From Candidatus Saccharimonadota bacterium (lineage in GTDB: Bacteria; Patescibacteriota; Saccharimonadia; QS-5-54-17): DNA of 64,000 nt. Positions 5,288 to 57,985 of this stretch are shown here, one piece after another. Made by a program: the position numbers and the translations under genes. The stretch is taken from assembly GCA_050486185.1 (NCBI GenBank), contig JBJHCT010000001.1:178866-242865 (forward strand), read 5' to 3'. A model generated the notes under the pieces. That model was not told the DNA's origin and did no database searches. It saw only the letters and a list, made by a program, of their open reading frames with translations. Positions within the stretch are counted from its first letter, which is position 1; each line of letters begins with the position of its first letter.

Positions 5288-6343
5288 ATGCAGGCAACTA
5301 TCGACATTTCTACCAAGGCAATCGTTAGAAGACTACTATTTGTAGTAGCTTTATTGGCTATAGCTACACTAGCTTACAACCTCCAGGGCGTTATTAGGAT
5401 GTTTATCATCGCCTTTTTCATAGCTTTAGTGATGCATGGACCAACCACTAAGCTGCAACAGTACGTTATAGCTCAAAACCGTAAACTAGCTGCCATAGTG
5501 GCCTTTATGTCGATTGGCTTTGTAGTCTCTGTCGTTATAGCCCTAGTAATACCAGTGATATCAAATCAAGCTAGAGAACTAGCCTTGCAAGCTCCGGGAT
5601 ATTTCCATGATCTGTCTAGTGGGGATGGATTTATATCTACTTGGATGCAGAATCTAGATATAGTTGGTAGTTTCCAGGACTTTCTAGCGAGTATTGCTAG
5701 TGGTTTAACTCTATCAGTTGATTTAATTATCGACGTTGCAGCTAGGGTTTTAGATAACATCATAACCTTCCTATTTACTATAGTTTTAGCCTTTCTGATG
5801 GTAGTTGAAGGGCCAAATTGGGCTAAACAGTCGAAGAAGTTCATACCAAAGTCCGCATCCCCTGCTTTAACTGAGTTGATGCCAAAGATGTACAAGGCAG
5901 TTACTGGTTTTGTGGCAGGACAGATTATTGTCACCTCTATAGCGGCTACAGCTACATTGATACTGTTATTTATATTCGGTGTTCCCGCTCCATTGTCTCT
6001 AGCGGCTGTCATATGGGTGACGGGCCTAATCCCACTCATCGGTAATACTCTAGGCGCAGTTATAGTTGTCGCAGTAGCGCTATCACAATCAGTCTTTGTA
6101 GCTATCTTCCTAGGAGTCTACTACATCATCTATCAGCAAATTGAAAACAATGTTTTTGAGCCGATTGTGCAGTCTAGAACAGTCAGTCTAACTCCACTAT
6201 ATGTCATTATCTCAGCCGTTATAGGTGTTTTTGCCGCCGGCTTTATAGGAGCGTTGATCGCTATACCGGTTGGAGCTTGTGTGAAGATTGTAGCTGAACA
6301 CTTCCTAAATGAGAGTTTAGACCCGGATAAATCTAGTACTTAA
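5288..6343 (+). CDS. AI-2E family transporter (paralog)
   Basis: Same architecture as the adjacent transporter, and the same YQQIENNVFEPIVQSR signature. Confidence 0.8.
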   Translation: MQATIDISTKAIVRRLLFVVALLAIATLAYNLQGVIRMFIIAFFIALVMHGPTTKLQQYVIAQNRKLAAIVAFMSIGFVVSVVIALVIPVISNQARELALQAPGYFHDLSSGDGFISTWMQNLDIVGSFQDFLASIASGLTLSVDLIIDVAARVLDNIITFLFTIVLAFLMVVEGPNWAKQSKKFIPKSASPALTELMPKMYKAVTGFVAGQIIVTSIAATATLILLFIFGVPAPLSLAAVIWVTGLIPLIGNTLGAVIVVAVALSQSVFVAIFLGVYYIIYQQIENNVFEPIVQSRTVSLTPLYVIISAVIGVFAAGFIGALIAIPVGACVKIVAEHFLNESLDPDKSST

Positions 6344-7148
6344 TACAGTAAAGTAAAGCGATGTTACGAGGGCGAGCTTCTGTCCCACCGCTATCTGCAG
6401 TATTGCCGGATATGCTATGAGTATGAGACCCATTACTGGTTGTAGACATAGTGCCATTACGGAAATACATTGTTGCATCATCATGTATCCCACCCTGACT
6501 AAAGCGAGGATTACTGCCGTCTTTTACTCTAAGTCCAGCCGTTTCACCAACAGTAGGTACAGTTATAGTTGGGCTAGATCCATTGTTTGCAATCATACGG
6601 ACTTGATTTAGGTAGTTCTGGGTATGTGTATGTGCTCCATCTGAGGCTGCTGTCAGTGATCCTGAATCATGTTGATGCTCTTTATTTTGATCTGCCTGAG
6701 CTGAACCTAAGTCTCTTCCGGTATCTACCCCTCTACCATCATCCCAAGCCCTAAGAAATTCACCCCTTAAGTCAGGTAGGTTAAAAGTAGTCGACCCATC
6801 ACCTACGCCATATTCAGTACCTATAATTGCAAATAAGTCTGCATACTGAGTGCGAGATACTGCCTGACCGTTACATTTCAGCCAGCCGTCAGGTTCTGCG
6901 TTCATAATAAAGCTCATAATAGCTCCTGGAGGAACCGAGGGTGCGCTGCTGCCAGTCACCCAAGTTGAGGTAGCCTCCTCATAGACCAACGTATCTCCAT
7001 CACTAGGACTATTAGCTGCAAGATTACTAATTTGCTCTAAGTTAATATTTCTCAAGCTACCATCTTGATTGTGGGCCACTTCAAGGAACTCATTTAGTAT
7101 GTCTCCCCAGGTACCAATATCTTCGCCTGGTATAGGCAGACGCGCCAT
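6333..7148 (-). CDS. Phage tail-collar domain (tail fibre-like) protein
   Basis: The MARLPIPGEDIGTWGDILNEFL N-terminus and GWLKCNGQAVSRTQYADLFAIIGTEYGVGDGSTTFNLPDLRGEF match the phage tail collar / T4 gp12-like motif (Y.ALF..IG..YG.GDG.TTFnLPDLRG). Confidence 0.8.
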   Translation of the reverse strand: MARLPIPGEDIGTWGDILNEFLEVAHNQDGSLRNINLEQISNLAANSPSDGDTLVYEEATSTWVTGSSAPSVPPGAIMSFIMNAEPDGWLKCNGQAVSRTQYADLFAIIGTEYGVGDGSTTFNLPDLRGEFLRAWDDGRGVDTGRDLGSAQADQNKEHQHDSGSLTAASDGAHTHTQNYLNQVRMIANNGSSPTITVPTVGETAGLRVKDGSNPRFSQGGIHDDATMYFRNGTMSTTSNGSHTHSISGNTADSGGTEARPRNIALLYCIKY

Positions 7149-15827: not shown

Positions 15828-16424
15828 TCATCGTGTCACCACTCTCCATCCAAAAACTCGCGTATTACCAGATGGATTATACAGTTCCAGTTTCATGCTC
15901 GATGCAGCCTTAGCTGCAAACAAAGCACTTAGGCCAAATGAGTCACCATTGGCGGCTGTACCATCAGACACTCGACCCAGCGATGAAGTAGTTCGATTTA
16001 TTGCCACTGTGTCATCAATCGTTAGGCGTACGCCTACACCAAAGCCCTGGATCGATCCACCAATCAGCTCAACTGGCACGGCAATATCAAAGATTGTGTG
16101 ATATGAGCTTGCTGATACTGACTGAGAAGTACCTTCGTGAAAGGTTAGCTCTCCTGCGTCTGCGGCTGTGATTGGTAGTACTACAGACTCCCCAATCTGC
16201 CCCTCAACCCATTGCTTATTAGCAACATCAGTGTCATTGACTGGATCTGCTACTTGCAATCTACCCCATTCATCATAGGCTGCTAGCCTACTACCTCCTG
16301 CTGTTGTTCCATCATGTACTCTAAGAGTTTTATTAGTAGTATCTACTGTAACTTCTCTAGCTGCTCCAGTGAAGCTATCGTTATCTGTATTACTACCACC
16401 TCTTAGTTGTACTTGGTCGGGCAT
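15828..16424 (-). CDS. Tail-fibre-repeat (HylP-type) paralog #1: conserved N-module plus unique C-terminal domain
   Basis: N-terminus MPDQVQLRGGSNTDNDSFTGAAREVTVDTTNKTLRVHDGTTAGGSRL matches the phage tail fibre repeat pattern QLR.GT...E...DT..L..GDG.T. The 5' ~230 nt are near-identical to four other loci. Confidence 0.7.
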   Translation of the reverse strand: MPDQVQLRGGSNTDNDSFTGAAREVTVDTTNKTLRVHDGTTAGGSRLAAYDEWGRLQVADPVNDTDVANKQWVEGQIGESVVLPITAADAGELTFHEGTSQSVSASSYHTIFDIAVPVELIGGSIQGFGVGVRLTIDDTVAINRTTSSLGRVSDGTAANGDSFGLSALFAAKAASSMKLELYNPSGNTRVFGWRVVTR

Positions 16425-17868: not shown

Positions 17869-18513
17869 ATGAGTATAGATGACCAACAATCAGACAACAC
17901 CTTAAGTAGCGATATCGACGCTAAAATTGCCAAGGATATGACTAAGGTAGACTATGAGCAGAAGATCGCTGAGCTAGAGGCGAAAATAGAAGAGCTAGAG
18001 GGTCGAGTAGTGACCGACTTTCTAACCGGTATCTATAATCGGCGCGGCTTAGAGGCATTGATGAACCGTGAATGGAACAGAATTAAAAGACTAGATAGCC
18101 CTAAAAGCCAAATCTTTTCTATAATCTGTATCGATAAGGACAATTTTAAAAGTATTAACGACAAATACGGCCACCTAAGTGGTGATATAGCCCTAAAGTC
18201 CATCGCCGAGCTATTAGAATCGTCCGTGCGAGAAAGTGATATCGTGGCTAGGTTTGGTGGCGATGAGTTTGTAGTAGTGCTACTTTCAACCGATACTGAA
18301 GAAGCTAAGCGGATAGCCGATGAGCTTGTTGATGTAGTAGCTAAGAACAAGATCACTAGTATTGATGGTAGGGACTTCTACTGCAAGATGTCTGCTGGTG
18401 TAAGCACCTATAAAGACCATCAAGATTGGCGCGAAGTCCTACATGAAGCCGACCAGGCGCTACTACAAGTCAAGGCTAAAGATAAAGGCAGAGCCCTTGC
18501 TTACGAGGTTTAA
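17869..18513 (+). CDS. GGDEF-domain diguanylate cyclase with N-terminal coiled coil
   Basis: Contains GIYNRRGL and the RFGGDEF active-site motif. Confidence 0.85.
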   Translation: MSIDDQQSDNTLSSDIDAKIAKDMTKVDYEQKIAELEAKIEELEGRVVTDFLTGIYNRRGLEALMNREWNRIKRLDSPKSQIFSIICIDKDNFKSINDKYGHLSGDIALKSIAELLESSVRESDIVARFGGDEFVVVLLSTDTEEAKRIADELVDVVAKNKITSIDGRDFYCKMSAGVSTYKDHQDWREVLHEADQALLQVKAKDKGRALAYEV

Positions 18514-18882: not shown

Positions 18883-19293
18883 ATGGATGCTATCGCGCAA
18901 CAAGAAGTGACTACTGACCCTTGGAGGTATCCGATGTTCGATCCCAAGTACGACAACAGCAACACTCAGCGTCGCCATATGTTGGCGGTCGGCCGAATTC
19001 CTAGACTGATTGGCGATCTAAAGAAAGGCAAAAGAACTCTCGACGAGAAGTTCGTGCGCCTTCTCTACTCGGAGTATCGGGCCTACTGGCGAAGTCGCCA
19101 TCCTTTCCACATGCGGCTGCAGCACTGTCAGATGAAGGAGACCGGTGCCTTCTATGGCTGGTCTCTTGGCAAAATTTTGGAGTACCTCAGCACTCCAGAT
19201 GACACCACCAAGGAGGGTGCTTGCGAGGCTGTATGCATCCTCAGAAATTCCGTCAAGGCTAATGTGGTTGATGACTTACTGGCTCTTAGCTAG
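18883..19293 (+). CDS. Hypothetical basic (Arg/Trp/His-rich) 136-aa protein in a GC-shifted islet
   Basis: ORF is visibly GC-richer than its flanks. Has the SD-like GGGAGAAAGG upstream. No recognisable family. Confidence 0.3.
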   Translation: MDAIAQQEVTTDPWRYPMFDPKYDNSNTQRRHMLAVGRIPRLIGDLKKGKRTLDEKFVRLLYSEYRAYWRSRHPFHMRLQHCQMKETGAFYGWSLGKILEYLSTPDDTTKEGACEAVCILRNSVKANVVDDLLALS

Positions 19294-25519: not shown

Positions 25520-26885
25520 CGAATGGTTCCGGGTTGCCTTGCATCTCGAAAGTTCCCGCGTCGAGGTCACAGACGATAAGCACGGTCATGGTGTCCTCCT
25601 ACGGCTCGATTGGATAGCGGATGTAGGCGACCCCGCGTCCACCGCGACCCGAAAAGGGACCTGTGTTACCAGCCGCACCGCCGCCACCTGCGCCTGTACC
25701 ATGCGTTCCGGCACCGCCTGTGGGAGACGCATCGCTACCTCCTGCGCCGCCGCCGCCAGCACCACCGGCACCGCCAGCATCACGACCGCCCCCGCCGCCG
25801 CCACCGCCGCGAATGACGCTCGACCCGGTGAAGTCGGATGACTCCCCGGCCCCACCGGCACCACCTGTCGTCCACGTCGGGCCGTTCGCCCCCGCCGCCG
25901 AGGTTCCACCGCCACCGCCGCCCGAGTCGTCAGCCGAGCCGTCGCCACCGTCGTTCCCTTGACCTGATGATCCACTGCCCCCGGTTGAACGAGATGCTCC
26001 ACCGCCTCCTGAACCTCCTGAGCCACCAACCTGCTGCCCCGAACCAAAAGTACCCCCACCACCGCCGCCACCAGTTGCAGTCACACCCGCAAACGTCGTG
26101 TTCGAGCCTGCATTACCTCGCCCACCGCCGGTTACACCGGCACCTTCTGCACCGACCACCACGGGGTAGACGGAAGCCGCGACCGGGACACTGCCCGTGC
26201 GCCGACCACCGGCACCGCCACCGCCACCGCCACGGATACCCGAAGATCCGCCACCAGCGCCGCCTCCAGCGACCAGGTAATACTCGACTTCTTCGTCCGT
26301 ACCCGGATCTAGAACCGTAAAGTTGGCTGACCCCGCCGCCGCGAACGTATGAAGCCTATACTGCCGACCGTCGATGGTGATGGTCGACTCGGTGCCGCCA
26401 GTTGCCGAGACAGAAACCCACACATCAGACGCAATGATCCCGCGACGAAGCAGCCGCATCAGGTGACCGCCTGTGCGCCGGTCATAACCCACTCGTTCGT
26501 AGCGTGCTTCGTGAGCACCGCCGTGCCGTACCGGTCGAGCGTCCCCGCTAGACGAACCGTAACCCCAGAGCCACCCACGACGGTCACGCCACCTGCACCG
26601 GCCGCATAGACCTCGATCACACTGCCCACCACAAACGCGACCGACGAGTTAGGCGGGACAGTGACAGTCACCGCGGCGGTATTGGTGAACCGCTTGACCG
26701 TCCCCGCGTCGGCCAGGGCGAGTGTGTAGGTCGTGCCCGATTCGTCAGAGAGCGCGACAGACGCGACAGAGTCGCCAATCTGTCCATCTACGTAGCCCTT
26801 GTTGGCGATATCAGCATCATCGACAGGATCGGCTACTTGGGCGCGACCCCACTCGTCATAGACTAGGAGCTTATGCCCACCAGCT
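25520..26885. other. About 1.36 kb strongly GC-rich island of foreign composition (by eye roughly 65-70% GC vs ~40% flanks; not computed)
   Basis: An abrupt shift to GCC/GGC/CCG-dominated sequence. The low-GC sequence resumes at ~26885 inside fibre paralog #2, and at ~25520 inside a 30-codon ORF. Confidence 0.8.
25599..26459 (-). CDS. Glycine-rich protein resembling minor tail proteins of actinobacteriophages
   Basis: Has ...TITIDGRQYRLHTFAAAGSANFTVLDPG...YYLVAGGGAGGGSSG, then long poly-Gly tracts, ending VAYIRYPIEP. A start at 26459 gives a TGATG stop/start overlap with fibre #2. The ORF track shows an alternative start at 26492. Other ORFs in this region are GC-mirror artefacts. Confidence 0.5.
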   Translation of the reverse strand: MRLLRRGIIASDVWVSVSATGGTESTITIDGRQYRLHTFAAAGSANFTVLDPGTDEEVEYYLVAGGGAGGGSSGIRGGGGGGAGGRRTGSVPVAASVYPVVVGAEGAGVTGGGRGNAGSNTTFAGVTATGGGGGGGTFGSGQQVGGSGGSGGGGASRSTGGSGSSGQGNDGGDGSADDSGGGGGGTSAAGANGPTWTTGGAGGAGESSDFTGSSVIRGGGGGGGGRDAGGAGGAGGGGAGGSDASPTGGAGTHGTGAGGGGAAGNTGPFSGRGGRGVAYIRYPIEP

Positions 26886-27007
26886 GTTGTTCCATCATGT
26901 ACTCTAAGAGTCTTATTAGTAGTATCTACTGTAACTTCTCTATTAACGCCAGTAAAAGCATCGTTCTCTGCTTCGGTTCCACCTCTTAGTTGTACTTGGT
27001 CTGGCAT
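26459..27007 (-). CDS. Tail-fibre-repeat paralog #2: chimeric, with low-GC conserved N-module fused in frame to a high-GC C-terminal domain
   Basis: First ~40 codons are nearly identical in nucleotides to the other paralogs. From ...HDGTTAGG|HKLLVYDEWGRAQ the protein stays homologous (DEWGRAQVADPVDDADIANKGYVDGQIGDSV), but the DNA becomes GC-rich. Confidence 0.7.
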   Translation of the reverse strand: MPDQVQLRGGTEAENDAFTGVNREVTVDTTNKTLRVHDGTTAGGHKLLVYDEWGRAQVADPVDDADIANKGYVDGQIGDSVASVALSDESGTTYTLALADAGTVKRFTNTAAVTVTVPPNSSVAFVVGSVIEVYAAGAGGVTVVGGSGVTVRLAGTLDRYGTAVLTKHATNEWVMTGAQAVT

Positions 27008-33269: not shown

Positions 33270-33932
33270 TTAGGTCGTGATTCCTAAATCAACTACCATC
33301 TGCCAGACTGGGCGTACAGGATCCCCTACAGTGAAGGTTCCAACAGCAGGATTCCCGCGTGTCTTGAGCGTCATAGGTGAACCTGTCCCTACAAAAAGAT
33401 GTTCACAATAGGCAGAAACATTGCCCGATGCATTTGCGGCGTTATAGATTGCGACTTGCTGTTGGCCGTTCGATCCGTTAGTGATAGTCATATTGCCGCG
33501 ACCAGCAGTTGATCCGGTTAGGACTACCGCGAAAGCCCGATAGGCATATAGGCGGCCAGTCTCGGTATTAAACGTGAACTCAGAGCCAACTAAATCGACA
33601 GAGGCTCCTTCTGAAACAATCTGTTGTGTAGTACGAATATTAAACGCAAATCCTCCTGTACCCCCAGATGTTGCAGATACTACACCGTCGGGCTTGGGAG
33701 TAATAACCCCATCCACATAGCTCTTGTTAGCTACATCAGTGTCATTAACTGGATCTGCTGTTTGCAGCCTACCCCATTGATCATAAGCTGCTAGTTTACT
33801 TCCACCTGCTGTTACTCCATCATGTACTCTAAGAGTCTTATTAGTAGTATCTACTGTAACTTCACGTTGTGCTCCTGTGAAGTTATCATTATCTGTGCTG
33901 CTTCCACCTCTTAGTTGTACTTGGTCGGGCAT
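33270..33932 (-). CDS. Tail-fibre-repeat paralog #3 (real start at the MPDQVQLRGG Met, not the longer track ORF)
   Basis: Conserved N-module; unique C-terminal ~140 aa (jelly-roll-like, GC-richer). An upstream TTGTCT-N17-TATTAT promoter-like element is present. Confidence 0.7.
   Translation of the reverse strand: MPDQVQLRGGSSTDNDNFTGAQREVTVDTTNKTLRVHDGVTAGGSKLAAYDQWGRLQTADPVNDTDVANKSYVDGVITPKPDGVVSATSGGTGGFAFNIRTTQQIVSEGASVDLVGSEFTFNTETGRLYAYRAFAVVLTGSTAGRGNMTITNGSNGQQQVAIYNAANASGNVSAYCEHLFVGTGSPMTLKTRGNPAVGTFTVGDPVRPVWQMVVDLGITT
33727..33863. repeat. Arm 1 of a ~137-nt near-identical inverted repeat (5' coding module of paralog #3)
   Basis: About 3 mismatches to the reverse complement of 34976..35112. 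Confidence 0.7.
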
Positions 33933-34068
33933 AGTGTGTTTACTACCTTTTATAGAATTATATATCATAAGCATAATACTAAATTTATTACTGTTAGACA
34001 ATCTAAAATAAAATCTATCAAACTACTTCTATGGAGTTTGATAGTAAGTTGGTTATAATATTGTCTGT

Positions 34069-34217: not shown

Positions 34218-34628
34218 ATGTCCCTATGTAAGAATTGCAGTACAGGATTAAACAGATTATCTAGTGTTTATTGTTCTAATAAATGCCAGAAAAATTACGA
34301 ATATGCTACGTACATTAAAAAGTGGAAACAAGGTAAAGTTACTGGTAGCAGAGGGGTTGATGCTAAGAATATTTCTAGGCATATTGTTAGATACCTAATC
34401 AGCAAGTATGAAGGTAGATGTGTAGAATGCGGCTGGAACAAGCTTCATCCAGTTACAGGTAACGTTTTACTAGAAGTAGATCATATAGATGGTGACTCGG
34501 ACAATAATCAGGAAGAGAATTTGCAGTTATTGTGTCCAAATTGCCATTCACTTACTAGTACATACAAAAATCTTAATAATGGTATGGGCAGAGAATGGAG
34601 AAGGTCTAAGTATATAAAATCTTCTTAG
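34218..34628 (+). CDS. HNH endonuclease with N-terminal zinc ribbon
   Basis: CKNCSTG...CSNKC ribbon, and the HNH core CVECGWNKLHPVTGNVLLEVDHIDGDSDNNQEENLQLLCPNCHS. Confidence 0.85.
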   Translation: MSLCKNCSTGLNRLSSVYCSNKCQKNYEYATYIKKWKQGKVTGSRGVDAKNISRHIVRYLISKYEGRCVECGWNKLHPVTGNVLLEVDHIDGDSDNNQEENLQLLCPNCHSLTSTYKNLNNGMGREWRRSKYIKSS

Positions 34629-34906: not shown

Positions 34907-35587
34907 ATGCCCGACCAAGTACAACTAAGAGGTGGTACAGAAGCAGAGAATAATAACTTCACAGGAGCAGCCAGAGAAGTTACAGTAGATACTACTAATA
35001 AGACTCTTAGAGTACATGATGGAGAAACAGCAGGAGGAAGTAAACTAGCAGCTTATGATCAATGGGGTAGGCTGCAAACAGCAGATCCAGTTAATGACAC
35101 TGATGTAGCTAATAAGCAGTGGGTTGAAGGGCATGTTAGTGGTGCTGCTACTCGTCGCGCACTTGTGATTCGCGATGATGTTCAAACAATCCCTAATGCC
35201 ACCACTACAGCAATGATATTCCAGACAGAGGTTTATGACGACGATGGCATGTTTGATATCGGATCACCAACCATGCTTGTTGTGCCATCCGGTGCGTCGA
35301 AAGTACGTGTGTCCGCTAGCGTGGTATGGGGAAGTAATGCAGACGGTCTGCGACAAGCGTTTATTGAACGCGACACTGGTGCAGGATTTACTGCGAGCTA
35401 TAACGGAGTAGCCCGGTTCGCAATGGACCCCGGGACTTCCAATCAGGCTTACTGGACAATGGCGACTGCCTGGATTGCATGTGATCCAGGTGATAAGTTT
35501 CAATTAGCTGTGCATCATACACGAGGAACCACTCTGCAAATGCAAGGCAGTGGTCTAACATGGATGATGATGGAGATATTAACATAA
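34907..35587 (+). CDS. Tail-fibre-repeat paralog #4
   Basis: Conserved N-module (MPDQVQLRGGTEAENNNFTGAAREVTVDTTNKTLRVHDGETAGG). Unique GC-richer C-terminal ~150 aa. Confidence 0.7.
   Translation: MPDQVQLRGGTEAENNNFTGAAREVTVDTTNKTLRVHDGETAGGSKLAAYDQWGRLQTADPVNDTDVANKQWVEGHVSGAATRRALVIRDDVQTIPNATTTAMIFQTEVYDDDGMFDIGSPTMLVVPSGASKVRVSASVVWGSNADGLRQAFIERDTGAGFTASYNGVARFAMDPGTSNQAYWTMATAWIACDPGDKFQLAVHHTRGTTLQMQGSGLTWMMMEILT
34976..35112. repeat. Arm 2 of the ~137-nt inverted repeat (5' module of paralog #4)
   Basis: Near-identical to the reverse complement of 33727..33863. Confidence 0.7.
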
Positions 35588-42206: not shown

Positions 42207-42866
42207 CTACATCTTCTCTGCAACAACAGTAATTACCCGATTCCTAAAAGTACTAGTGGCCGAAGATGTCGCATACTTTGCGGTAAACGTAGTAGTACCG
42301 GGGTTCAGCCCGCTAAGCAAAAACGTTCTGGAAGCCGTACCATGTCCTGACCCGGCCCAGGAATTCCCTATAGCACTACGGCTTTGCGCTGTCAGCCCTC
42401 CCCAAGTATCCCCAGCGGCGTATGTATTTGTTCCAGTCGCTGCAAGGTTCATTGACGTCACAACACCAGCACCCGAACCCCACATAAAGGCACTCAGCGA
42501 TACCAGGACTTTACCAGATGCTGGTACGTCGATTTCAATAGAAGGACCAACAGTGGCTAAATCAGTAAAAGATGTGCTAGTGGTTGACTCTTGTGCTGCT
42601 GTTTCTGAACCCTCGAAGCTTATTCCAGACTCTTCAACCACCCCATCTACATAACTCTTGTTAGCTACATCAGTATTATTGACTGGATCTTCTACTTGCA
42701 GCCTACCCCATTCATCATAAGCTGCTAGTCTACTTCCTCCTGCTGTTTCTCCATCATGTACTCTAAGAGTCTTATTAGTAGTATCTACTGTAACTTCACG
42801 GCTTACTCCAGTGAAGCTATCGTTATCGTTTGCTGTACCACCTCTTAGTTGGACTTGGTCGGGCAT
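42207..42866 (-). CDS. Tail-fibre-repeat paralog #5, inserted between secY and infA
   Basis: Conserved N-module. Unique Ser/Thr/Gly-rich, GC-richer C-terminal ~140 aa. Confidence 0.7.
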   Translation of the reverse strand: MPDQVQLRGGTANDNDSFTGVSREVTVDTTNKTLRVHDGETAGGSRLAAYDEWGRLQVEDPVNNTDVANKSYVDGVVEESGISFEGSETAAQESTTSTSFTDLATVGPSIEIDVPASGKVLVSLSAFMWGSGAGVVTSMNLAATGTNTYAAGDTWGGLTAQSRSAIGNSWAGSGHGTASRTFLLSGLNPGTTTFTAKYATSSATSTFRNRVITVVAEKM

Positions 42867-51197: not shown

Positions 51198-51833
51198 TTA
51201 TTCTCCTAGCCTTTCGCTGATTAGCTTTAGGGCCGGCTTAGTAATAAGTAGATTATCACTGTCGATAACTTGCTTGGTATTTAGGCTACTAGCCAGTACT
51301 ACTTGAACTGATGATATATTGTTAGCCGCACGTTTTAGGTCTTCGCTGACTTCATCAACCACTAATAGAACGTTTCTGTTGAGTTTTAGCTTATCTAGTA
51401 TAATCTTTAAACTTTTAGTCTTGCCGTCTTTGGCTTCAAGAGCCTCGATGATAGCTATATTGCCGCTACTAGCCTTGAGACTTAAAGCTTGTCTTATAGC
51501 TAATCTACCAGCTGTCTTATTCAGCTTTTTACTGTAGTTGCGCTCTTTGAGTGGGCCGAAAGTAATTCCACCACCGCGCCAGATAGGGCTACGGATCGAT
51601 CCAGCTCTAGCTCGACCGGTACCCTTTTGTCTCCATGGCTTTTTACCACCACCGCGGACATTGCTTCTAGTTTTAGTGTGGGCACTAGATTTGCGTCCGT
51701 TGCTCATATGAGTCTCATATGCTTGTTTGAGTAAGTGATGGTTTGCAACGTCTTCGCCAAACACTACCTTTGATAGGGTAGTAGCTTTGGTGGCCTTAGC
51801 CCCAGTCTTGGTGTAAGTTGCTGCAGTCGCCAT
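51198..51833 (-). CDS. rplD: 50S ribosomal protein L4
   Basis: Conserved sequence and order. Confidence 0.9.
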   Translation of the reverse strand: MATAATYTKTGAKATKATTLSKVVFGEDVANHHLLKQAYETHMSNGRKSSAHTKTRSNVRGGGKKPWRQKGTGRARAGSIRSPIWRGGGITFGPLKERNYSKKLNKTAGRLAIRQALSLKASSGNIAIIEALEAKDGKTKSLKIILDKLKLNRNVLLVVDEVSEDLKRAANNISSVQVVLASSLNTKQVIDSDNLLITKPALKLISERLGE

Positions 51834-52444
51834 TACTCTTTATCCCCTTTAGATTCAATTACCACAATGCCGCCTTTATTACCTGGAACTGCACCGCTAA
51901 TAGCTAGGATGTTATCAGTCGTATCAACAGCCTCGATTTTCAGTCCCTTAGTAGTAACTTTTTCATCACCCATACGACCAGGCATCTTCCTACCCTTATA
52001 GACCTTTTGTGGGTACATAGAACCAATACTTCCAAGTTTGCGTTTGCTTTGAGAACCATGGCTCATAGGGCCTCTACTGAAGTTATGTCGCTTGATAGTG
52101 CCGGCAAAACCTTTACCTTTACTAATACCACTAACTGTAACCTCGTCACCAACTTCAAAGTTAGAGACATCTACTTTGTCGCCAACTTTAGCATCAGAAC
52201 TTAACTTAAACTCACGCAAGTACCGATGGTTAGACTTGCTAGACTTTAAGTGTCCTGCCTGGGGCTTGCTTTGGTGCTTTGCCTCTCCATAACCTAGTTG
52301 CACAGCCTCATAACCATCTTTGTCTGAGTTTTTTAGGGCTGTAATAGTGCACGGGCCAGCCTCTACCAAAGTAACCGCCTTGGCGCTAGAGTCATCTGTA
52401 AAAATTTGTGTCATGCCGAGCTTACGCCCGATGATAGCTTTCAT
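51833..52444 (-). CDS. rplC: 50S ribosomal protein L3
   Basis: Conserved sequence. Separated from rpsJ by an inserted cassette. Confidence 0.9.
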   Translation of the reverse strand: MKAIIGRKLGMTQIFTDDSSAKAVTLVEAGPCTITALKNSDKDGYEAVQLGYGEAKHQSKPQAGHLKSSKSNHRYLREFKLSSDAKVGDKVDVSNFEVGDEVTVSGISKGKGFAGTIKRHNFSRGPMSHGSQSKRKLGSIGSMYPQKVYKGRKMPGRMGDEKVTTKGLKIEAVDTTDNILAISGAVPGNKGGIVVIESKGDKE

Positions 52445-52606
52445 CTTAGTTATTCCTTATCTAAACATAAAAATACTGCTACGAATTATACCTTTACTTT
52501 CAGGTATCTTCTAGCAGTCTCCGCCTAAAATATAGCGAATCTGTGTTTATATCCTAGGAATTGTAACAGTATATTTCCCCAGGTGTCAACTGTAGTAGCG
52601 AAAAAT

Positions 52607-53656
52607 CTATTTCCACTTACCTATAGCTGCATAACCTATTATAGTTTCTGTGCCAGAAGCCCTCTGATTGACATCTATACCCCTGATCGAAATGCTAGTG
52701 GTGGATATAGCGCTGACGGTGCCCCATGAAGCACTAGTACCCCACTTAAAGACAGTGGTTAGAGGTGTTGGGGTTTCAGAAAATTGCTGGGGGAAGGTGT
52801 ACGCCCTAACACCTTGGTAGAGACTACCGTAGGCGTTGTCAATGCTTTGATCGGTCACGGTTTCGACCTTGTGAATAATCATAGTTCCATCAGACCATTT
52901 CACCCAATTACCATTACTATCAGAACCGGACTCTACAACGGGAGCACCATTAGATACTAGGCCCCCTGCAACTACAGTACCGCTAAACTCTACTTCGCTA
53001 GTGCTGTGATCAACCGCTATAACATCTTCATCTTTTTGATAGTTCCATAACCTAATATCACTACTGGGCTGATCAAGATACCATAGCCATTTGCTCTCTG
53101 ATGAATCAGCTAGAGCAAAGCCGTGATAACTTGATGATCTGACCCGAATGTGCCCGCCCAAAACATCGAATATAGTGTTGGAGCTATTTGTACCTGGATT
53201 AACATTATTAACCCCTATCCTGCCCCCAGAATCTATATACAATCTGGCTTGAGAGTCTACGCCATCCCATATATATAAATCTCTAGTATTGTTACCGTTG
53301 TAGTCGGTGCCTATATTAAACCGGCCGGCACCTTGTTGTCTGAATTTAATTTCGCTATCCATACGAGTAGCAGAGTCTTTATCTATAGTGATGCCGCCCC
53401 AGTTATCGTTATGACGAACATGCAGCTTTGTTCCCGGAGTATCTGCGCCTATACCTACCCTACCATCTAATCTATAGATATCGTTCCCGCTAACTACCCA
53501 TGAAGACAGAGAAGAAGGCGTTATCCAGGCAGTATCATAATCATTAATAGAATCCTTGGCTAAAACATCACCACTAGCACCGCCAGCCGGAATGCCTTTC
53601 CCACCACCACCTCCTAGCGGCACCAACTCGCCATTTTGTTTTATCCAACGTGTCAT
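52607..53656 (-). CDS. Tail-fibre-like beta-rich protein (S10-operon cassette gene 5)
   Basis: GDVLAKDSINDYDTAW near the N-terminus, and the fibre-associated RVGIGADTPGTKLHV motif. No signal peptide. Confidence 0.55.
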   Translation of the reverse strand: MTRWIKQNGELVPLGGGGGKGIPAGGASGDVLAKDSINDYDTAWITPSSLSSWVVSGNDIYRLDGRVGIGADTPGTKLHVRHNDNWGGITIDKDSATRMDSEIKFRQQGAGRFNIGTDYNGNNTRDLYIWDGVDSQARLYIDSGGRIGVNNVNPGTNSSNTIFDVLGGHIRVRSSSYHGFALADSSESKWLWYLDQPSSDIRLWNYQKDEDVIAVDHSTSEVEFSGTVVAGGLVSNGAPVVESGSDSNGNWVKWSDGTMIIHKVETVTDQSIDNAYGSLYQGVRAYTFPQQFSETPTPLTTVFKWGTSASWGTVSAISTTSISIRGIDVNQRASGTETIIGYAAIGKWK

Positions 53657-53746
53657 TTTGTTGATTATTATACTCTCTTAGTAATACCTATAGATTAGCA
53701 CAAGCATATATCAGTCTCAAAAAAACACACAAACATTTAGCTAATG

Positions 53747-54526
53747 CTAAGTAGGCACTGCATCTACTCTATAATAGAGCCCCGTCTTCTCACTGTCACT
53801 ATCATTTAGGGTACCGGCCTGTCCTGTTAAGTTAAAATTAAAACTGTGAGTGCCGGAATTGAGAACTACCATGCCAATCCCAGCGGTTGTGCGCACGTGA
53901 CTATCACCTGTATTAACAGGCATAGCTACTCTTCTTATACTATTTCCATTAACTAGGGCATCGATATAAAACCAGCTAGTGGTTGTAGCACCACTGGGCC
54001 TTGCTGAAACGTTGAAATCCACGCTCAAAACCGCATTAAAGGGTAGCTCTATTTCTATATCTGTACTAAAAAAGTTAGTACCCCTATCCCAAGTACCTTT
54101 TGCAGCCTGGTCTTGAGCTAGAGTTAGAGCAACGTTATTGGCTCTAATCCATCCATCAACATCTAGCCTAACTTGCGGGTTTTCCACTCCTATACCTACT
54201 GAGCCGCCGCCGCTAGGCATAATCTTGATATCTTCACCCGCACCAGAAACAATGTTGTGACCGTTAACGTCTAAGTCACCTCCCAGTTGTGGCGAGTCAT
54301 CCTCCACTAATTTAGATATAGTACTCATACTATTAACTGTCCCTGCAACTTCATCTATTGCAGACTTAACATCTGTAGCGAGTAATCCTGATTCAGTATT
54401 GTCGTATGAAAGACTACTTATATCAATGCTAGCTTCAGATAAATCTATGGTGCCATCTGGATGCAAGACTATATTAGAATCCATAGCATCGGGATGCTGT
54501 ATTTTTGTAGTCTTAACGGTACTCAT
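53747..54526 (-). CDS. Tail-fibre-like protein (cassette gene 4)
   Basis: N-terminus ...KIQHPDAMDSNIVLHPDGTIDLSEASIDISSLSYDNTESGLLATDVKSAIDEV is paralogous to cassette gene 3. Has the SVGIGVENPQVRLDVDG motif. Confidence 0.55.
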   Translation of the reverse strand: MSTVKTTKIQHPDAMDSNIVLHPDGTIDLSEASIDISSLSYDNTESGLLATDVKSAIDEVAGTVNSMSTISKLVEDDSPQLGGDLDVNGHNIVSGAGEDIKIMPSGGGSVGIGVENPQVRLDVDGWIRANNVALTLAQDQAAKGTWDRGTNFFSTDIEIELPFNAVLSVDFNVSARPSGATTTSWFYIDALVNGNSIRRVAMPVNTGDSHVRTTAGIGMVVLNSGTHSFNFNLTGQAGTLNDSDSEKTGLYYRVDAVPT

Positions 54527-54532
54527 ACTTAA

Positions 54533-55408
54533 TTAACCTTCTAGCCAAAAGCCCCTAGTATAAATATTCTCCACCCAGGGTTGCCAACCACCCGAGTAAG
54601 CCCATATATAGAACCTACCCTCGGAATCCGTCTCTACATCATACTCTATACCCCATCTATCCACACCCACCCCCTGTATAGCAGGGGCATGGGAGGTCCA
54701 AGCATTCCCCGTAGTTGGATCGCCAAATGGTTTAGTCATCCAAAGCATTCCCGAAGCGCCAAGTCTTCTGGTAACTATATATAATTTTACCGCACCTATA
54801 CGACCAATTACTCCCTGTGGCAAGTGCTGACTCATATCTATTAGCTGTGGGCTGGTCGATAGTGGATTTTGTGTAAATATACTACTGGAAGCTAAAGGTG
54901 ATGATTTATCTAATCTATAGTATGCTCCTAGAGCTTTATAGTTAGAGAACTGTTCGTATCTAATGTTGTCGCCAACCCTCACCTCTCCATCAACATGCAG
55001 ACTGGCTTGTGGGTCATCTGTACCTACACCCACCCTGTTATCTGTAGTATTTACGCTAATAGTAGGGGTTTGGCCATCTGAAACCTTGAAAGCTTCAGTG
55101 TTGTTAGTGGCAACATCAACAGGGCCACTAAAGCTAGCCCCATCTAACGGGGCCTTTTTACTATCTAACTCATCGATTGCTTCCTTAACATTGTTTGCAC
55201 TAACAGTAGAGTTGGTATTGTCATAAGTGATACTGCTATTAGTGTCGATATTAACATCAGAGATATTGACCTTGCCGTCTTGATTGAAGGTAATATTGGC
55301 ATCTACAGCTTCAGGGTGTTTAATTGATGTAGTTTTAATTTCCCCAGTTTCTACAGTATTGGTATCCACTACATCACTAATTATTCTATTGGCCTTTATA
55401 TCAGACAA
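54533..55408 (-). CDS. Tail-fibre-like protein (cassette gene 3)
   Basis: ...SIKHPEAVDANITFNQDGKVNISDVNIDTNSSITYDNTNSTVSANNVKEAIDEL, with the RVGVGTDDPQASLHVDG motif. Confidence 0.55.
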   Translation of the reverse strand: MSDIKANRIISDVVDTNTVETGEIKTTSIKHPEAVDANITFNQDGKVNISDVNIDTNSSITYDNTNSTVSANNVKEAIDELDSKKAPLDGASFSGPVDVATNNTEAFKVSDGQTPTISVNTTDNRVGVGTDDPQASLHVDGEVRVGDNIRYEQFSNYKALGAYYRLDKSSPLASSSIFTQNPLSTSPQLIDMSQHLPQGVIGRIGAVKLYIVTRRLGASGMLWMTKPFGDPTTGNAWTSHAPAIQGVGVDRWGIEYDVETDSEGRFYIWAYSGGWQPWVENIYTRGFWLEG

Positions 55409-55511
55409 AATAACACCTCTTTATACTTAATTTTAATTAGGAGTTAAAACTACTAATACATATATACTACGCAAGCTACAAACAAGGTGTCAAATCAGTC
55501 ACGCTTAGGTA

Positions 55512-57281
55512 TTATCCCACTCTACCTAGTAATATGGCTACTTCGCTATCTACTGGCCACGGATTAAATTTACAACCCTGCAAGTCTATAGACTGTTGCA
55601 ACATCACTGGAGCCGGTGCTCCTGGAGTAGGGCAGTTTAGATGACCAAAGCCAAGTAGGTGACCGGCTTCATGATTGACCACCATATGACGGTAATCTCG
55701 CAAATTCCCACCGGCCTCATTCCAAGAAGGTGTAGCATTTCTCCACCTAACATCATTAATAATGACATCTCTACCGACTCGGCAACTATACTCTGCTGAG
55801 CAGAGAGTAGAGAAACTAGTCAGCTGATCAGCTGCTGCCAGCCAGATAGTGAAATCACTCACACCACTATCTACTCTGCGGAATCCTACGTCACTTCTAG
55901 ACCATCCTCGGCTATCACCTAGAGTTTGGGCAACCAATACTGCAAACTCATTAATATCAGCTACTGTATCCCCTCTAGTAGCGATATTGTAGGTCAATAC
56001 TAAGCTAGGACTTTTAATGCAATACTCTATAGAGCCCTCACCTAGTTCTACCTCGTCTGATTTAGCTGATATAGCTAATATGTAGCATTGATCTTCCAAA
56101 AAACTACCATCTACTACCCCTGATAGATTTACACTTAGTCTATCCTCGCTATTGAGGCTATCTAGTTGATTTGTATCTAAGGACATTCTTTCATCTATAC
56201 TTAGTGGCTGTTGATCACTATCGACAACAAGCTCTAAAGATTTAATAGTTGGCCCGCTTTTATGCAGCATAATATCAATACTTAACTCATCTCCAGATGA
56301 AACCTCTACAGAGCTGGTTGAGATCTCTAAATCTAGAGAAGACTCCTGGGGGTAGGCAAAAACTAACAAAGTTTCTGAGCCGACATATGGAGCATATACA
56401 GAAGCAGCCGAGAGACGTAAATCAAAACTATGACCTCTAATGACGTCTAAGATATTGGTGGTAGCAAAATCACTGTGCCACTCAGTAGAGCAATTTATGC
56501 TTCTTGGACAGTTATCACTAACAAATTGATACCCTGCACCCTTACTGGGTAGACCCTCATCAGTTTGAGTAGTAATATCACCACACTCTAGGTAGTTGAT
56601 ACACCACAGCTGATGAGACTCATCTTCATTGATAATATCTACACTACCTCCATCATCGACCCAAACAGCCGCCTTGTCGGCAAAATCACCATAAACCGGT
56701 GTCTCAAGATCTAAATTAGTATTCGCTATATCGATACTAAAGGGGTTTAATCTACTTAAGAGTGATGGCTTTTTAATAAACTTGGGAGACTTAGAGCTAG
56801 TAATGTCTTGGTTTAGATTTGGTACTCCTAATCTTACGTATTCTGCCCTAGCGCCGCTGTAGCGATATTGATCTGACAGTAAGTCTATAGTTTCATCAAT
56901 ATCACTACTACAAGCATGCTCACCACCGGTAGCTATATAAGTTGGCTCTTCTTCGATAGTCAGAGGCTTGTTAATATCATCTGCTTTGCCGTAAAGACTG
57001 AAGCTTCTAACTTGGTAATGCATTCCCTCTTGATTCCAGATCTCTGAGTCACTCTCATCATTACTACCATCGCTACTTTCTTCACCACCATCCCAGGAAG
57101 CGACTACATCACCATAGGAGACCTGGCACTGAGAATAATTAACATCAGCTATTACTGGATAACTAAACCACCAATAACCCCAAGAGGCTGTAGCTACTGC
57201 CAAGATACTCACAAGAGATATCAGTAGAGTCTTTGGTGAAGTTACTAGTTGCTTCATCCAAGCTCGGATTAATTTCATCAA
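55512..57281 (-). CDS. Membrane-anchored/secreted metzincin-type zinc metalloprotease
   Basis: N-terminal hydrophobic anchor. C-terminal HEAGHLLGFGH (HExxHxxGxxH) followed by a Met-turn-like APAPVM. Confidence 0.7.
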   Translation of the reverse strand: MMKLIRAWMKQLVTSPKTLLISLVSILAVATASWGYWWFSYPVIADVNYSQCQVSYGDVVASWDGGEESSDGSNDESDSEIWNQEGMHYQVRSFSLYGKADDINKPLTIEEEPTYIATGGEHACSSDIDETIDLLSDQYRYSGARAEYVRLGVPNLNQDITSSKSPKFIKKPSLLSRLNPFSIDIANTNLDLETPVYGDFADKAAVWVDDGGSVDIINEDESHQLWCINYLECGDITTQTDEGLPSKGAGYQFVSDNCPRSINCSTEWHSDFATTNILDVIRGHSFDLRLSAASVYAPYVGSETLLVFAYPQESSLDLEISTSSVEVSSGDELSIDIMLHKSGPTIKSLELVVDSDQQPLSIDERMSLDTNQLDSLNSEDRLSVNLSGVVDGSFLEDQCYILAISAKSDEVELGEGSIEYCIKSPSLVLTYNIATRGDTVADINEFAVLVAQTLGDSRGWSRSDVGFRRVDSGVSDFTIWLAAADQLTSFSTLCSAEYSCRVGRDVIINDVRWRNATPSWNEAGGNLRDYRHMVVNHEAGHLLGFGHLNCPTPGAPAPVMLQQSIDLQGCKFNPWPVDSEVAILLGRVG

Positions 57282-57288
57282 TTAACTC

Positions 57289-57555
57289 CTAAATATTGGT
57301 AGCGTCTAACACTATACCTATTGGTGCTACTAGACTCAAAATAGCAGCTATCAGTAAAATTGCGTACTCTATCTTGCGGTCTATCTGGAAATGATCGTGT
57401 GAGGCGAAAATAAGTCCTAGTATTAGACCTACGGGTACGGGTAGGTTTATAAACCCTACCTTTAGCCAGATAGCTCCCACCAAGAAATACATCAAGATTT
57501 TAAGAAAATACAGACTATCAGGCTCTTGTTTGTTTGTTTGTTTACTCTTAACCAT
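57289..57555 (-). CDS. Small membrane protein (2-3 TM)
   Basis: 88 aa with hydrophobic helices. First gene of the inserted cassette. Confidence 0.45.
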   Translation of the reverse strand: MVKSKQTNKQEPDSLYFLKILMYFLVGAIWLKVGFINLPVPVGLILGLIFASHDHFQIDRKIEYAILLIAAILSLVAPIGIVLDATNI

Positions 57556-57594
57556 TAGCTATATATTACTGTTAATCTCTGCTACGTGCAAATT

Positions 57595-57629
57595 AAAAAC
57601 CCTTGAGCGAATAACGTCCAAGGGTTTTT
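57595..57629. terminator. Bidirectional terminator-like hairpin between rpsJ and the inserted cassette
   Basis: AAAAACCCTTG-13 nt-CAAGGGTTTTT, an 11-bp stem with A/U-tracts on both sides. Confidence 0.55.
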
Positions 57630-57658
57630 ATAAGTAGTTAGGTTAGCTAAATCTACAT

Positions 57659-57985
57659 CTACATCTTGATTTCTGTATCTACACCGCTAGGTAGATTCAG
57701 ATTCATCAAAGAGTCAATCGTCTTATTAGTAGGCTCACTAATATCAATTAATCGCTTATGAACTCGCATCTCAAACTGTTCACGAGAAGATTTGTAGATA
57801 TGTGGACTCTTAACTACTGTGTAACTACTTCTATCGGTCGGTAGTGGAATGGGGCCAGCAACCTTCGCACCAGTTCTAAGAGCTGTTTCGATAATCTGTT
57901 TAGCTGATTGATCTATCAGCTTATGATCATAGGCCTTAAGTCTGATACGAATACGTTGCTTAGTGGGTGCTTCGGAAGTAGCCAT
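57659..57985 (-). CDS. rpsJ: 30S ribosomal protein S10
   Basis: ...[25 protein letters not shown]... is typical of S10. Immediately downstream of tuf. Confidence 0.9.

Follow-up and report, generated by a model that had tools for sequence, protein, structure and literature searches.

The locus described here raises the question of why rpsJ and rplC, the first two genes of the S10 operon and almost universally contiguous elsewhere, are separated by five genes in a Candidatus Saccharimonadota genome, and why three of those genes resemble phage tail-fibre genes. The analysed stretch of DNA (the window) is 64,000 nt long and covers positions 178,866 to 242,865 of contig JBJHCT010000001.1 (GenBank assembly GCA_050486185.1); all coordinates below are those of the window. 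Its minus strand carries, in this order, rpoC', rpsL/rpsG-sized open reading frames (ORFs), fusA, tuf, rpsJ, the five ORFs, rplC-rplD-rplW-rplB-rpsS-rplV-rpsC, and the remaining S10/spc/alpha block. The rpsJ gene, encoding S10 (57659..57985, minus strand; Pfam Ribosomal_S10, 1.1e-37), and rplC, which encodes L3 and opens the downstream ribosomal-protein unit (51833..52444, minus strand; Pfam Ribosomal_L3, 3e-13), are 5,214 bp apart, and the five ORFs that an initial annotation of the sequence had placed in this gap were all found there, intact and on the minus strand. From rpsJ towards rplC they are tm88 (57289..57555), encoding a small membrane protein of 88 aa; mp589 (55512..57281), encoding a predicted membrane-anchored DUF3152 zinc metalloprotease of 589 aa; and three phage-fibre-like genes, fib291 (54533..55408; 291 aa), fib259 (53747..54526; 259 aa), and fib349 (52607..53656; 349 aa). 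In guanine-plus-cytosine (GC) content, third-position GC (GC3), and codon usage, the four long inserted genes lie at or below the median distance for the window and are hence typical of it; a GC content close to that of the genome had been noted in the same annotation. The explanation that we consider probable is that this is an operon-boundary junction with variable cargo, to which phage-derived genes of the receptor-binding type have been added.

The junction was compared in 127 related loci (numbered with an L), taken from GTDB representatives, with one genome per species, and from metagenomes. The closest S10 match among the one-per-species genomes was 82% identical, and this comparison places the organism in Saccharibacteria/Saccharimonadia. 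Contiguity of rpsJ and rplC elsewhere, as claimed at the outset, was confirmed: the two genes are 20-314 nt apart in all 64 loci outside the clade that hold both, including other Saccharibacteria, Doudnabacteria, Chloroflexota, Actinobacteria, and Bdellovibrio. The gaps in the 11 closest Saccharibacteria are 581, 645, 815, 1,563, 2,143, 3,549, 3,573, 4,391, 5,233, 5,243, and 8,823 bp, and those in three metagenome loci are 2.8-6.3 kb. Their cargo varies by genome and, as far as sequence motifs inspected by eye can show, includes RarA-like, aquaporin-like, and aminotransferase-like ORFs. Homologues of tm88 are present in the rpsJ-rplC gap of L003-L008, L010, L109, L117, L118, L121, and L122, and tm88 is followed by a DUF3152 protease in L007 and in the metagenome loci L109, L117, L118, L121, and L122 (partial in L126), with further cargo on either side of the pair in related loci. 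At least seven relatives have the pair, none of them together with fibre genes. Homologues of the fibre genes were found in none of the 127 loci. The spacer between the protease gene and rplC in L007 aligns with the spacer between fib349 and rplC in the window, which places the fibre trio 3' of the protease stop and 5' of the rplC promoter. These alignments indicate that the cassette consists of two layers of differing age, namely a clade-wide tm88-protease pair, which recurs in the junctions of relatives, and a genome-specific 2.9-kb fibre block, which does not; the single 5.2-kb insertion proposed in the initial annotation is not supported.

No flanking direct or inverted repeat longer than expected by chance was found at the cassette, and Pfam and PHROG scans of the window showed no integrase, capsid, or packaging gene that would mark a prophage or integrative element. 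The junction resembles integration hotspots and islets between core genes in having conserved flanks (rpsJ and rplC) and cargo of varied size and content. It differs from them in that the flanks are the first two genes of an operon that is otherwise almost universally contiguous, and in that it has no integrase, tRNA, or flanking repeats. As a separate observation, several contigs of related genomes (L002, L004, L013, L109, L117, and L126) have one end no more than a few hundred bases away from rpsJ, tm88, or the protease gene; population-level variability at the junction could break assemblies, although this is anecdotal.

Transcription signals predicted from the sequence suggest that the junction is an inter-operon boundary and that the fibre genes form their own transcription unit. 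Since the ATG of rpsJ shares 1 nt with the stop codon of tuf, rpsJ would be the last gene of the tuf unit. It is followed by a terminator-like hairpin (57586..57630, minus strand) with a 13+2 bp stem, a 5' A-tract, and a 3' UUUUUAAUUU tail, which folds at -17.7 kcal/mol (z = -5.6; 0 of 200 shuffles fold as well). As a stable GC-containing hairpin followed by a U-tract, it has the predicted features of a rho-independent terminator, and A-tract/stem/U-tract hairpins follow rpsJ in most clade loci. A promoter-like site, TTGACA-18-TAGTAT (55464..55493, minus strand; 10/12 match), precedes fib291, which has a TTG start with a AAAGAGGTG Shine-Dalgarno sequence; the -10 type of this site also precedes the Mtd_N paralogues described below. 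A second promoter-like site, TTGACA-18-(TG)TTACAAT (52560..52589, minus strand; 11/12 match, extended -10), lies in the 162-nt spacer between fib349 and rplC, and an equivalent site was found 110-160 nt upstream of rplC in 16/16 clade loci examined. Just upstream of the rplC ribosome-binding site is a two-tier leader hairpin with a U-rich tract (52475..52518, minus strand). The rplC leader folds at -26.9 kcal/mol (z -3.8) and has no Rfam family; its hairpin is present in L007 with compensatory changes and in similar forms in L003, L006, and L009. No terminator was detected between fib349 and rplC. The hairpin after rpsJ, the spacer of 160 nt before rplC, and the re-wired transcription described in the initial annotation are consistent with these measurements and predictions. 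The identity between the fibre and rplC promoters is 9-11 nt (TTGACACCT); it might stem from duplication of a promoter but is too short to serve as evidence of one.

In comparison with the E. coli-type S10 operon, which has an L4-controlled leader upstream of rpsJ, the downstream order rplC-rplD-rplW-rplB-rpsS-rplV-rpsC is kept and a structured 5' leader with a U-tract likewise precedes the first gene of the unit. In contrast to that operon, rpsJ is detached and translationally coupled to tuf, and the promoter-like site and leader stand before rplC. Instead of the canonical arrangement, in which rpsJ is followed directly by rplC in one unit, the window has a gap, a terminator-like hairpin, a promoter-like site, and a leader. 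The near-universal linkage of the two genes is dissolved in the whole Saccharibacteria clade, where its place is taken by a putative terminator, a variable islet, and a putative promoter with its leader.

In the rpsJ-rplC spacers of other Saccharibacteria and Doudnabacteria, a conserved structured RNA motif, GUAAAU-UAG-UUCU...AGA(A/U)AACGAUUUAC, was observed, followed by a hairpin and a U-run (L025-L027, L034, L036, L041, L042, L048, L049, L051, L054, L058, L060, and L065). Compensatory changes are present at 8 of its 15 predicted pairs, and it has no Rfam match. It may represent a leader of ribosomal-protein genes, or an attenuator, located ahead of rplC. The clade members L003, L005, L006, and L009 have a related AGGUCU...AGA(U/A)ACC core.

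The older layer of the cassette consists of tm88 and mp589. The small protein has two to three hydrophobic segments, as expected of the membrane protein originally described, and a conserved DHFQIDRKIEY motif; it matches no Pfam family, and its match to holin_phiLC3 is weak (E 0.0076, far below the cut-off). The mp589 gene starts 8-10 nt past the tm88 stop. Its DUF3152 domain covers residues 444-568 (Pfam, 3.9e-23; 82.6 bits against a cut-off of 25.1), with HEAGHLLGFGH at residue 537, a Met 13 residues downstream, and a single N-terminal hydrophobic segment at residues 12-37. Of the initial description as a membrane-anchored metzincin, the membrane-anchored zinc protease is supported by the HExxHxxGxxH motif, the DUF3152 domain, and the putative transmembrane segment, and the downstream Met is a candidate Met-turn. 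The membrane segment is followed by about 400 residues that match no family; an extra region of ~350 aa ahead of the catalytic domain is common only to L007, whose full-length homologue is 39% identical. The protease homologues at other loci are usually 235-250 aa long, and their start abuts or overlaps the tm88 stop. The further proposal that the protease processes the fibres was not borne out, as nothing links the two and relatives keep the protease without any fibre.

Mycobacterium tuberculosis Rv3207c is listed as a DUF3152 protein (PMC3726780). The window protein and such actinobacterial DUF3152 proteins are alike in the catalytic domain, the HExxHxxGxxH motif, and predicted export or membrane anchoring, whereas the ~350 extra residues and the pairing with tm88 set mp589 apart. 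No experimental test of DUF3152 function was found in the literature for any organism, and a PDB sequence search with the protease gave no meaningful match and hence no solved relative. PADLOC returned no defence-system match for any of the five junction proteins. In many other Saccharibacteria (metagenome contigs L084-L100), a DUF3152 homologue was seen away from the rpsJ-rplC junction, ~5 kb from a tuf-like GTPase gene and, in many cases, close to where a very long contig (0.4-0.9 Mb) ends.

The younger layer is the fibre block. All three fibre ORFs, and no other ORF in the window, have the VGIG..P...L(H/D)V motif, which is also a 48-nt DNA repeat family. Of the three, fib349, with two VGIG-type motifs, has the clearest phage relationship, and it shares nothing but this motif with the other two. 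Its last ~110-125 residues match phrog_2712 ("tail fiber protein", 3.4e-20) in PHROGs. This C-terminal tip (residues 240-349; 52610..52939, minus strand) has 50-55% identity with the C-terminus of proteins of 572 aa whose genes lie directly 3' of a Prophage_tail (Tal) gene in ~36-kb temperate siphovirus contigs. It also matches annotated tail fibres of Pseudomonas and Vibrio phages, with 42-55% identity to phage proteins, and is found on at least 236 IMG/VR contigs. In an AlphaFold monomer model, residues 240-349 form a lectin-like beta-sandwich with a predicted local distance difference test score (pLDDT) above 90, and residues 1-235 have pLDDT below 50. Foldseek ranked the R1 pyocin fibre first for the predicted tip (6cl5, E 8e-6; 6cxb, TM 0.62), followed by H-type lectins and tailspike or fibre tips. 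Together, homology and the modelled fold indicate that fib349 has a phage/pyocin tail-fibre tip domain at its C-terminus. Relative to the R1 pyocin fibre PALES_06171 (6CL5/6CXB), the Pseudomonas phage KPP25 fibre, and PHROG 2712, the C-terminal ~110 residues are homologous, and the predicted fold matches the lectin-like "foot" of these proteins. The differences are that fib349 has 349 aa compared with about 570-700 aa in pyocin and phage fibres, that its N-terminal two thirds are unrelated to theirs, and that it has no adjoining tail, baseplate, or chaperone gene and is flanked by ribosomal-protein genes of an episymbiont. No tail or baseplate gene surrounds fib349, whose neighbours are the protease gene, the two other fibre-like genes, and rplC, and none is present in the 64 kb.

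The other two fibre-like proteins are paralogues over their ~130 N-terminal residues (34% identity, E 3e-19), which confirms the common N-terminal module reported for them; its motif is YDNT.S...A..VK.AIDEL. In fib291 the module is followed by a VGVG..P...LHV motif and an orphan C-terminal domain, and fib259 has an all-beta orphan C-terminal domain. Matches of fib259 to PHROGs are weak (phrog_31104, unknown function, 3e-6; phrog_677, 1.8e-3), as are matches of its residues 41-117 to pelagiphage tail fibres (5e-5 to 2e-3). A word-based homologue search with fib259 returned only fib259 itself, and its AlphaFold model, built from a two-sequence alignment, had a mean pLDDT of 36 and was unusable. 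For fib291 there was no PHROG match, no homologue in the word-based search, and no phage match with tblastn; PDB sequence searches gave no meaningful match for either protein. The YDNT...AIDE motif, searched with a hand-made DNA pattern, occurs on at least 120 viral contigs, with a chance expectation far below one, and five of 10 evenly sampled ORFs carrying it match PHROG tail-fibre or tail families. A scan of viral contigs with the N-module alignment produced uninformative peptide patterns, and nothing was confirmed. A profile of the shared N-module gave 22,639 protein matches, mostly giant repeat proteins, and Pfam searches on eight of these returned spurious repeat families only. The three fibre proteins and tm88 are singleton clusters in a collection of 15 billion proteins. 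The initial designation of three phage-fibre proteins is accordingly best kept for the fib349 tip, on the strength of PHROG, phage contig, and Foldseek matches; for fib259 and fib291 the label "fibre" is putative and motif-level.

Besides the fibre trio, the window has further loci for phage tail proteins, a point absent from the initial annotation. A 300-nt repeat family corresponds to five paralogues of 182-243 aa, all with Pfam Mtd_N. They are 75-85% identical over the first ~80 residues and over about 60 nt of the 5' untranslated region (UTR), and their C-termini are unrelated. Each lies beside a housekeeping unit and has its own TTGAC(T/A)-17/18-TAGTAT-like promoter site. These are mtdA (26459..27007, minus strand; 1.9e-11), which is chimeric and upstream of nusG; mtdB (42207..42866, minus strand; 2.7e-10), between secY and rpsM; mtdC (33270..34001, minus strand; 2e-12), beside tRNA-Thr; mtdD (15828..16424, minus strand; 5.7e-12), directly after the rplL terminator; and mtdE (34907..35587, plus strand), beside tRNA-Thr/Tyr genes. 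A gene for a Gly-rich phage protein (25599..26492, minus strand; Pfam Gly_rich_2, 4e-17; phrog_2295, 1.9e-39) also lies upstream of nusG and has relatives on 14 viral contigs, and a gene for a 271-aa tail-collar-domain protein (6333..7148, minus strand; Pfam Collar, 1e-26) is immediately downstream of cysS. The window thus has at least ten phage-tail-protein genes (three fibres, five Mtd_N, Gly-rich, and Collar), all at housekeeping-operon boundaries. No capsid, portal, terminase, tube, sheath, baseplate, tape-measure, or integrase gene was found among the about 55 window ORFs scanned with Pfam and PHROG.

The C-terminus of mtdB matches mycobacteriophage minor tail proteins (phrog_7565, 1.9e-25; 85 Mycobacterium phage records), the relatives of mtdA are Gordonia phage minor tail proteins, which it matches over their C-terminal ~140 residues with 40-47% identity, and the mtdE C-terminus matches Staphylococcus phage and cyanophage tail proteins; the phage matches of mtdC and mtdD are through the Mtd_N part only. 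The distal three quarters of mtdA and the Gly_rich_2 gene form a 1.35-kb block (25550-26880) with 60-78% GC in a 42% GC genome. In mtdA itself, the 5' UTR and the initial ~42 codons are native and low in GC, and the remainder has 60-68% GC. Upstream of the switch at about codon 42 the DNA is nearly identical to that of mtdB; past it the protein stays homologous and the synonymous sites turn to G/C, which argues for recombination of mtdA with a homologous gene of a high-GC donor. High-GC, actinophage-like DNA has taken the place of the distal part of mtdA, by recombination that fell within the conserved N-terminal "handle".

In comparison with actinobacteriophage minor tail proteins (PHROG 7565; Gordonia phage Bizzy gp40), two of the five Mtd_N paralogues have similar C-terminal domains, but the paralogues are short and scattered singly beside housekeeping operons, outside the rpsJ-rplC cassette. 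All five have the N-terminal domain of Mtd of Bordetella phage BPP-1, which is the target of a diversity-generating retroelement. Unlike BPP-1 Mtd, they have no reverse transcriptase or template/variable repeat pair within the window. Such a retroelement was considered for the Mtd_N genes and is not supported within the window, which contained no such repeat pair and whose scanned ORFs gave no reverse-transcriptase match; apart from the VGIG motif and the 5' ends of the paralogues, the window has no long repeats.

Under the explanation put forward here, the tuf-rpsJ unit would end in an intrinsic terminator and rplC would start a new unit from its own sigma-70-type promoter with a structured leader. 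The boundary between them would be a parking place for accessory genes, with the tm88-DUF3152 protease pair as an old resident. The extra cargo in this genome would be three phage-derived tail-fibre-type genes with their own consensus-like promoter, and their proteins would be built like phage receptor-binding proteins, with conserved N-terminal modules and unrelated C-terminal domains. The modular handle-plus-tip construction, native codon usage, own promoter-like sites, multiple copies, and recent tip replacement suggest that the genes are in use, and the intact ORFs and the Shine-Dalgarno sequence are further signs of this. Since cultivated Saccharibacteria live attached to Actinobacteria (PMC10633639), host-surface recognition would be the most economical function. 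The structural and evolutionary parts of this explanation are well supported. As to function, we infer that the proteins may be expressed cellular products that recognise the surface glycans of the bacterial host and whose specificity is diversified by C-terminal domain swaps, which is possible but somewhat short of probable. In its widest form, the episymbiont would build a host-recognition apparatus from captured phage receptor-binding proteins, drawn from two or more families and numbering at least ten genes, which would have their own strong promoters, be parked at the edges of housekeeping operons (the opened rpsJ-rplC junction among them), and be renewed by handle recombination with DNA from phages of the actinobacterial host. 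We regard this as speculative and rather doubtful. The mtdA chimera would then be one such capture event, with its Gordonia-phage-like distal part of 60-78% GC.

Several points weigh against the host-recognition reading. The fibre-like proteins have no N-terminal hydrophobic segment and so no obvious Sec route to the surface. No family-level match was obtained for fib259 or fib291, and the fold prediction was unusable for fib259. Among phage proteins, the fib349 tip is most closely related to those of Pseudomonas and Vibrio phages rather than of actinophages, and only two of the five Mtd_N paralogues point to actinophages. Transcription of the fibre genes may continue into rplC, since the interval between fib349 and rplC showed no terminator, and the promoters and terminators are themselves consensus matches. 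The analysis covered 64 kb of the genome, and a phage-like particle cluster may lie elsewhere.

The last-mentioned particle is the alternative with the most in its favour, and it is unlikely. The genes would be dispersed parts of a phage-like particle (a tailocin, a gene-transfer-agent-like particle, or a prophage elsewhere), with N-terminal modules that dock to a common baseplate or adaptor, C-terminal domains that set the target range, and release by lysis without a signal peptide. The conserved handle and variable tip in two families, the absence of signal peptides on the fibre-like proteins, the pyocin-fibre-like tip of fib349, recombination within the handle as in phage fibre swapping, and the weak holin-like score of tm88 all fit a particle, and the fibre and head-spike genes of the Rhodobacter gene transfer agent (RcGTA) are likewise at separate loci. 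It is opposed by the lack of tube, sheath, baseplate, tape-measure, capsid, portal, terminase, and integrase genes in the window ORFs and by the vertical, housekeeping-like conservation of tm88 and the protease in relatives without fibres, and ten fibre-type genes would be unusual for a single particle. Improbable to a greater degree is a fragment of a phage tail module that decays in a permissive intergenic region without cellular function. Such a fragment would account for singleton proteins found in no relative, for the lack of partner tail genes and of an export signal, and for a junction that takes unrelated cargo in other genomes. Yet the three ORFs are intact and closely spaced, with a Shine-Dalgarno sequence and promoter-like sites. 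In codon usage and GC3 they are wholly native, in contrast to the high-GC block of the window, which is obviously recent. The existence of two multi-copy families in which the N-termini are conserved also speaks for a maintained function. Saccharibacteria genomes are also small and compact, which counts against the retention of decaying DNA.

The model of the initial annotation, a single 5.2-kb fibre/protease cassette inside the S10 operon in which the adhesins share the expression of the ribosomal proteins and are substrates of the protease, is largely refuted by the comparison of related loci, and we consider it very improbable. The five genes are on the same strand as rpsJ and rplC and tightly packed between them, and the undetected terminator between fib349 and rplC would also suit it. 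However, the strong predicted terminator after rpsJ, together with the rplC promoter-like site and leader, is conserved in the clade; separate promoter-like sites precede fib291 and rplC; and tm88 and the protease are older than the fibres and are found where these are absent. Least probable of all, to the point of being negligible, is an assembly or binning artefact in which foreign phage DNA was joined into a Saccharibacteria contig. The assembly is of the metagenome type and many related contigs break at the junction, but the GC content and codon usage are native, both flanks, tm88, and the protease are collinear with relatives, the same proteins are on record in a 264,553-bp contig, and the fibre promoter-like site resembles other promoters of the genome.

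The means by which ultrasmall Patescibacteria locate and attach to host cells are largely an open question, and published work points to type IV pili and to a few glycan-binding surface proteins (PMC10633639, PMC12206443). No paper was found that brings phage-fibre-like genes into this context, or that links Saccharibacteria with phage-fibre-like genes, Mtd-type proteins, or a split S10 operon. Captured phage receptor-binding genes and core-gene islets are known kinds; the location and the host organism are new. A phage-type receptor-binding repertoire with swappable tips would give testable host-range candidates and would tie episymbiont host range to phage host range; if it exists, the epibiont and the phages of its host would compete for, or share, surface receptors. 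The dissolved rpsJ-rplC linkage and the unannotated structured RNA before rplC in other Patescibacteria bear on the regulation of ribosomal-protein operons, and both matter as well where the S10 gene block serves as a marker of synteny or phylogeny for metagenome-assembled genomes.

Some other genes of the window were also noted. An HNH endonuclease gene (34218-34628, plus strand; PHROG HNH families down to 1.5e-17) lies between tRNA-Thr(GGU) and the tRNA-Thr(UGU)/tRNA-Tyr genes and is flanked by mtdC and mtdE. A 136-aa ORF of atypical composition (18883-19293, plus strand; GC 0.52, GC3 0.61), for which no Pfam or PHROG family was found, adjoins a GGDEF diguanylate-cyclase gene (17869-18513) that has strong scores against several PHROG families. 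Ribosomal protein L1 (22811-23770, minus strand) has a ~120-residue N-terminal extension, with the Pfam domain at residues 123-310 of 319 aa, and L7/L12 (16562-17020, minus strand) has ~30 extra N-terminal residues.

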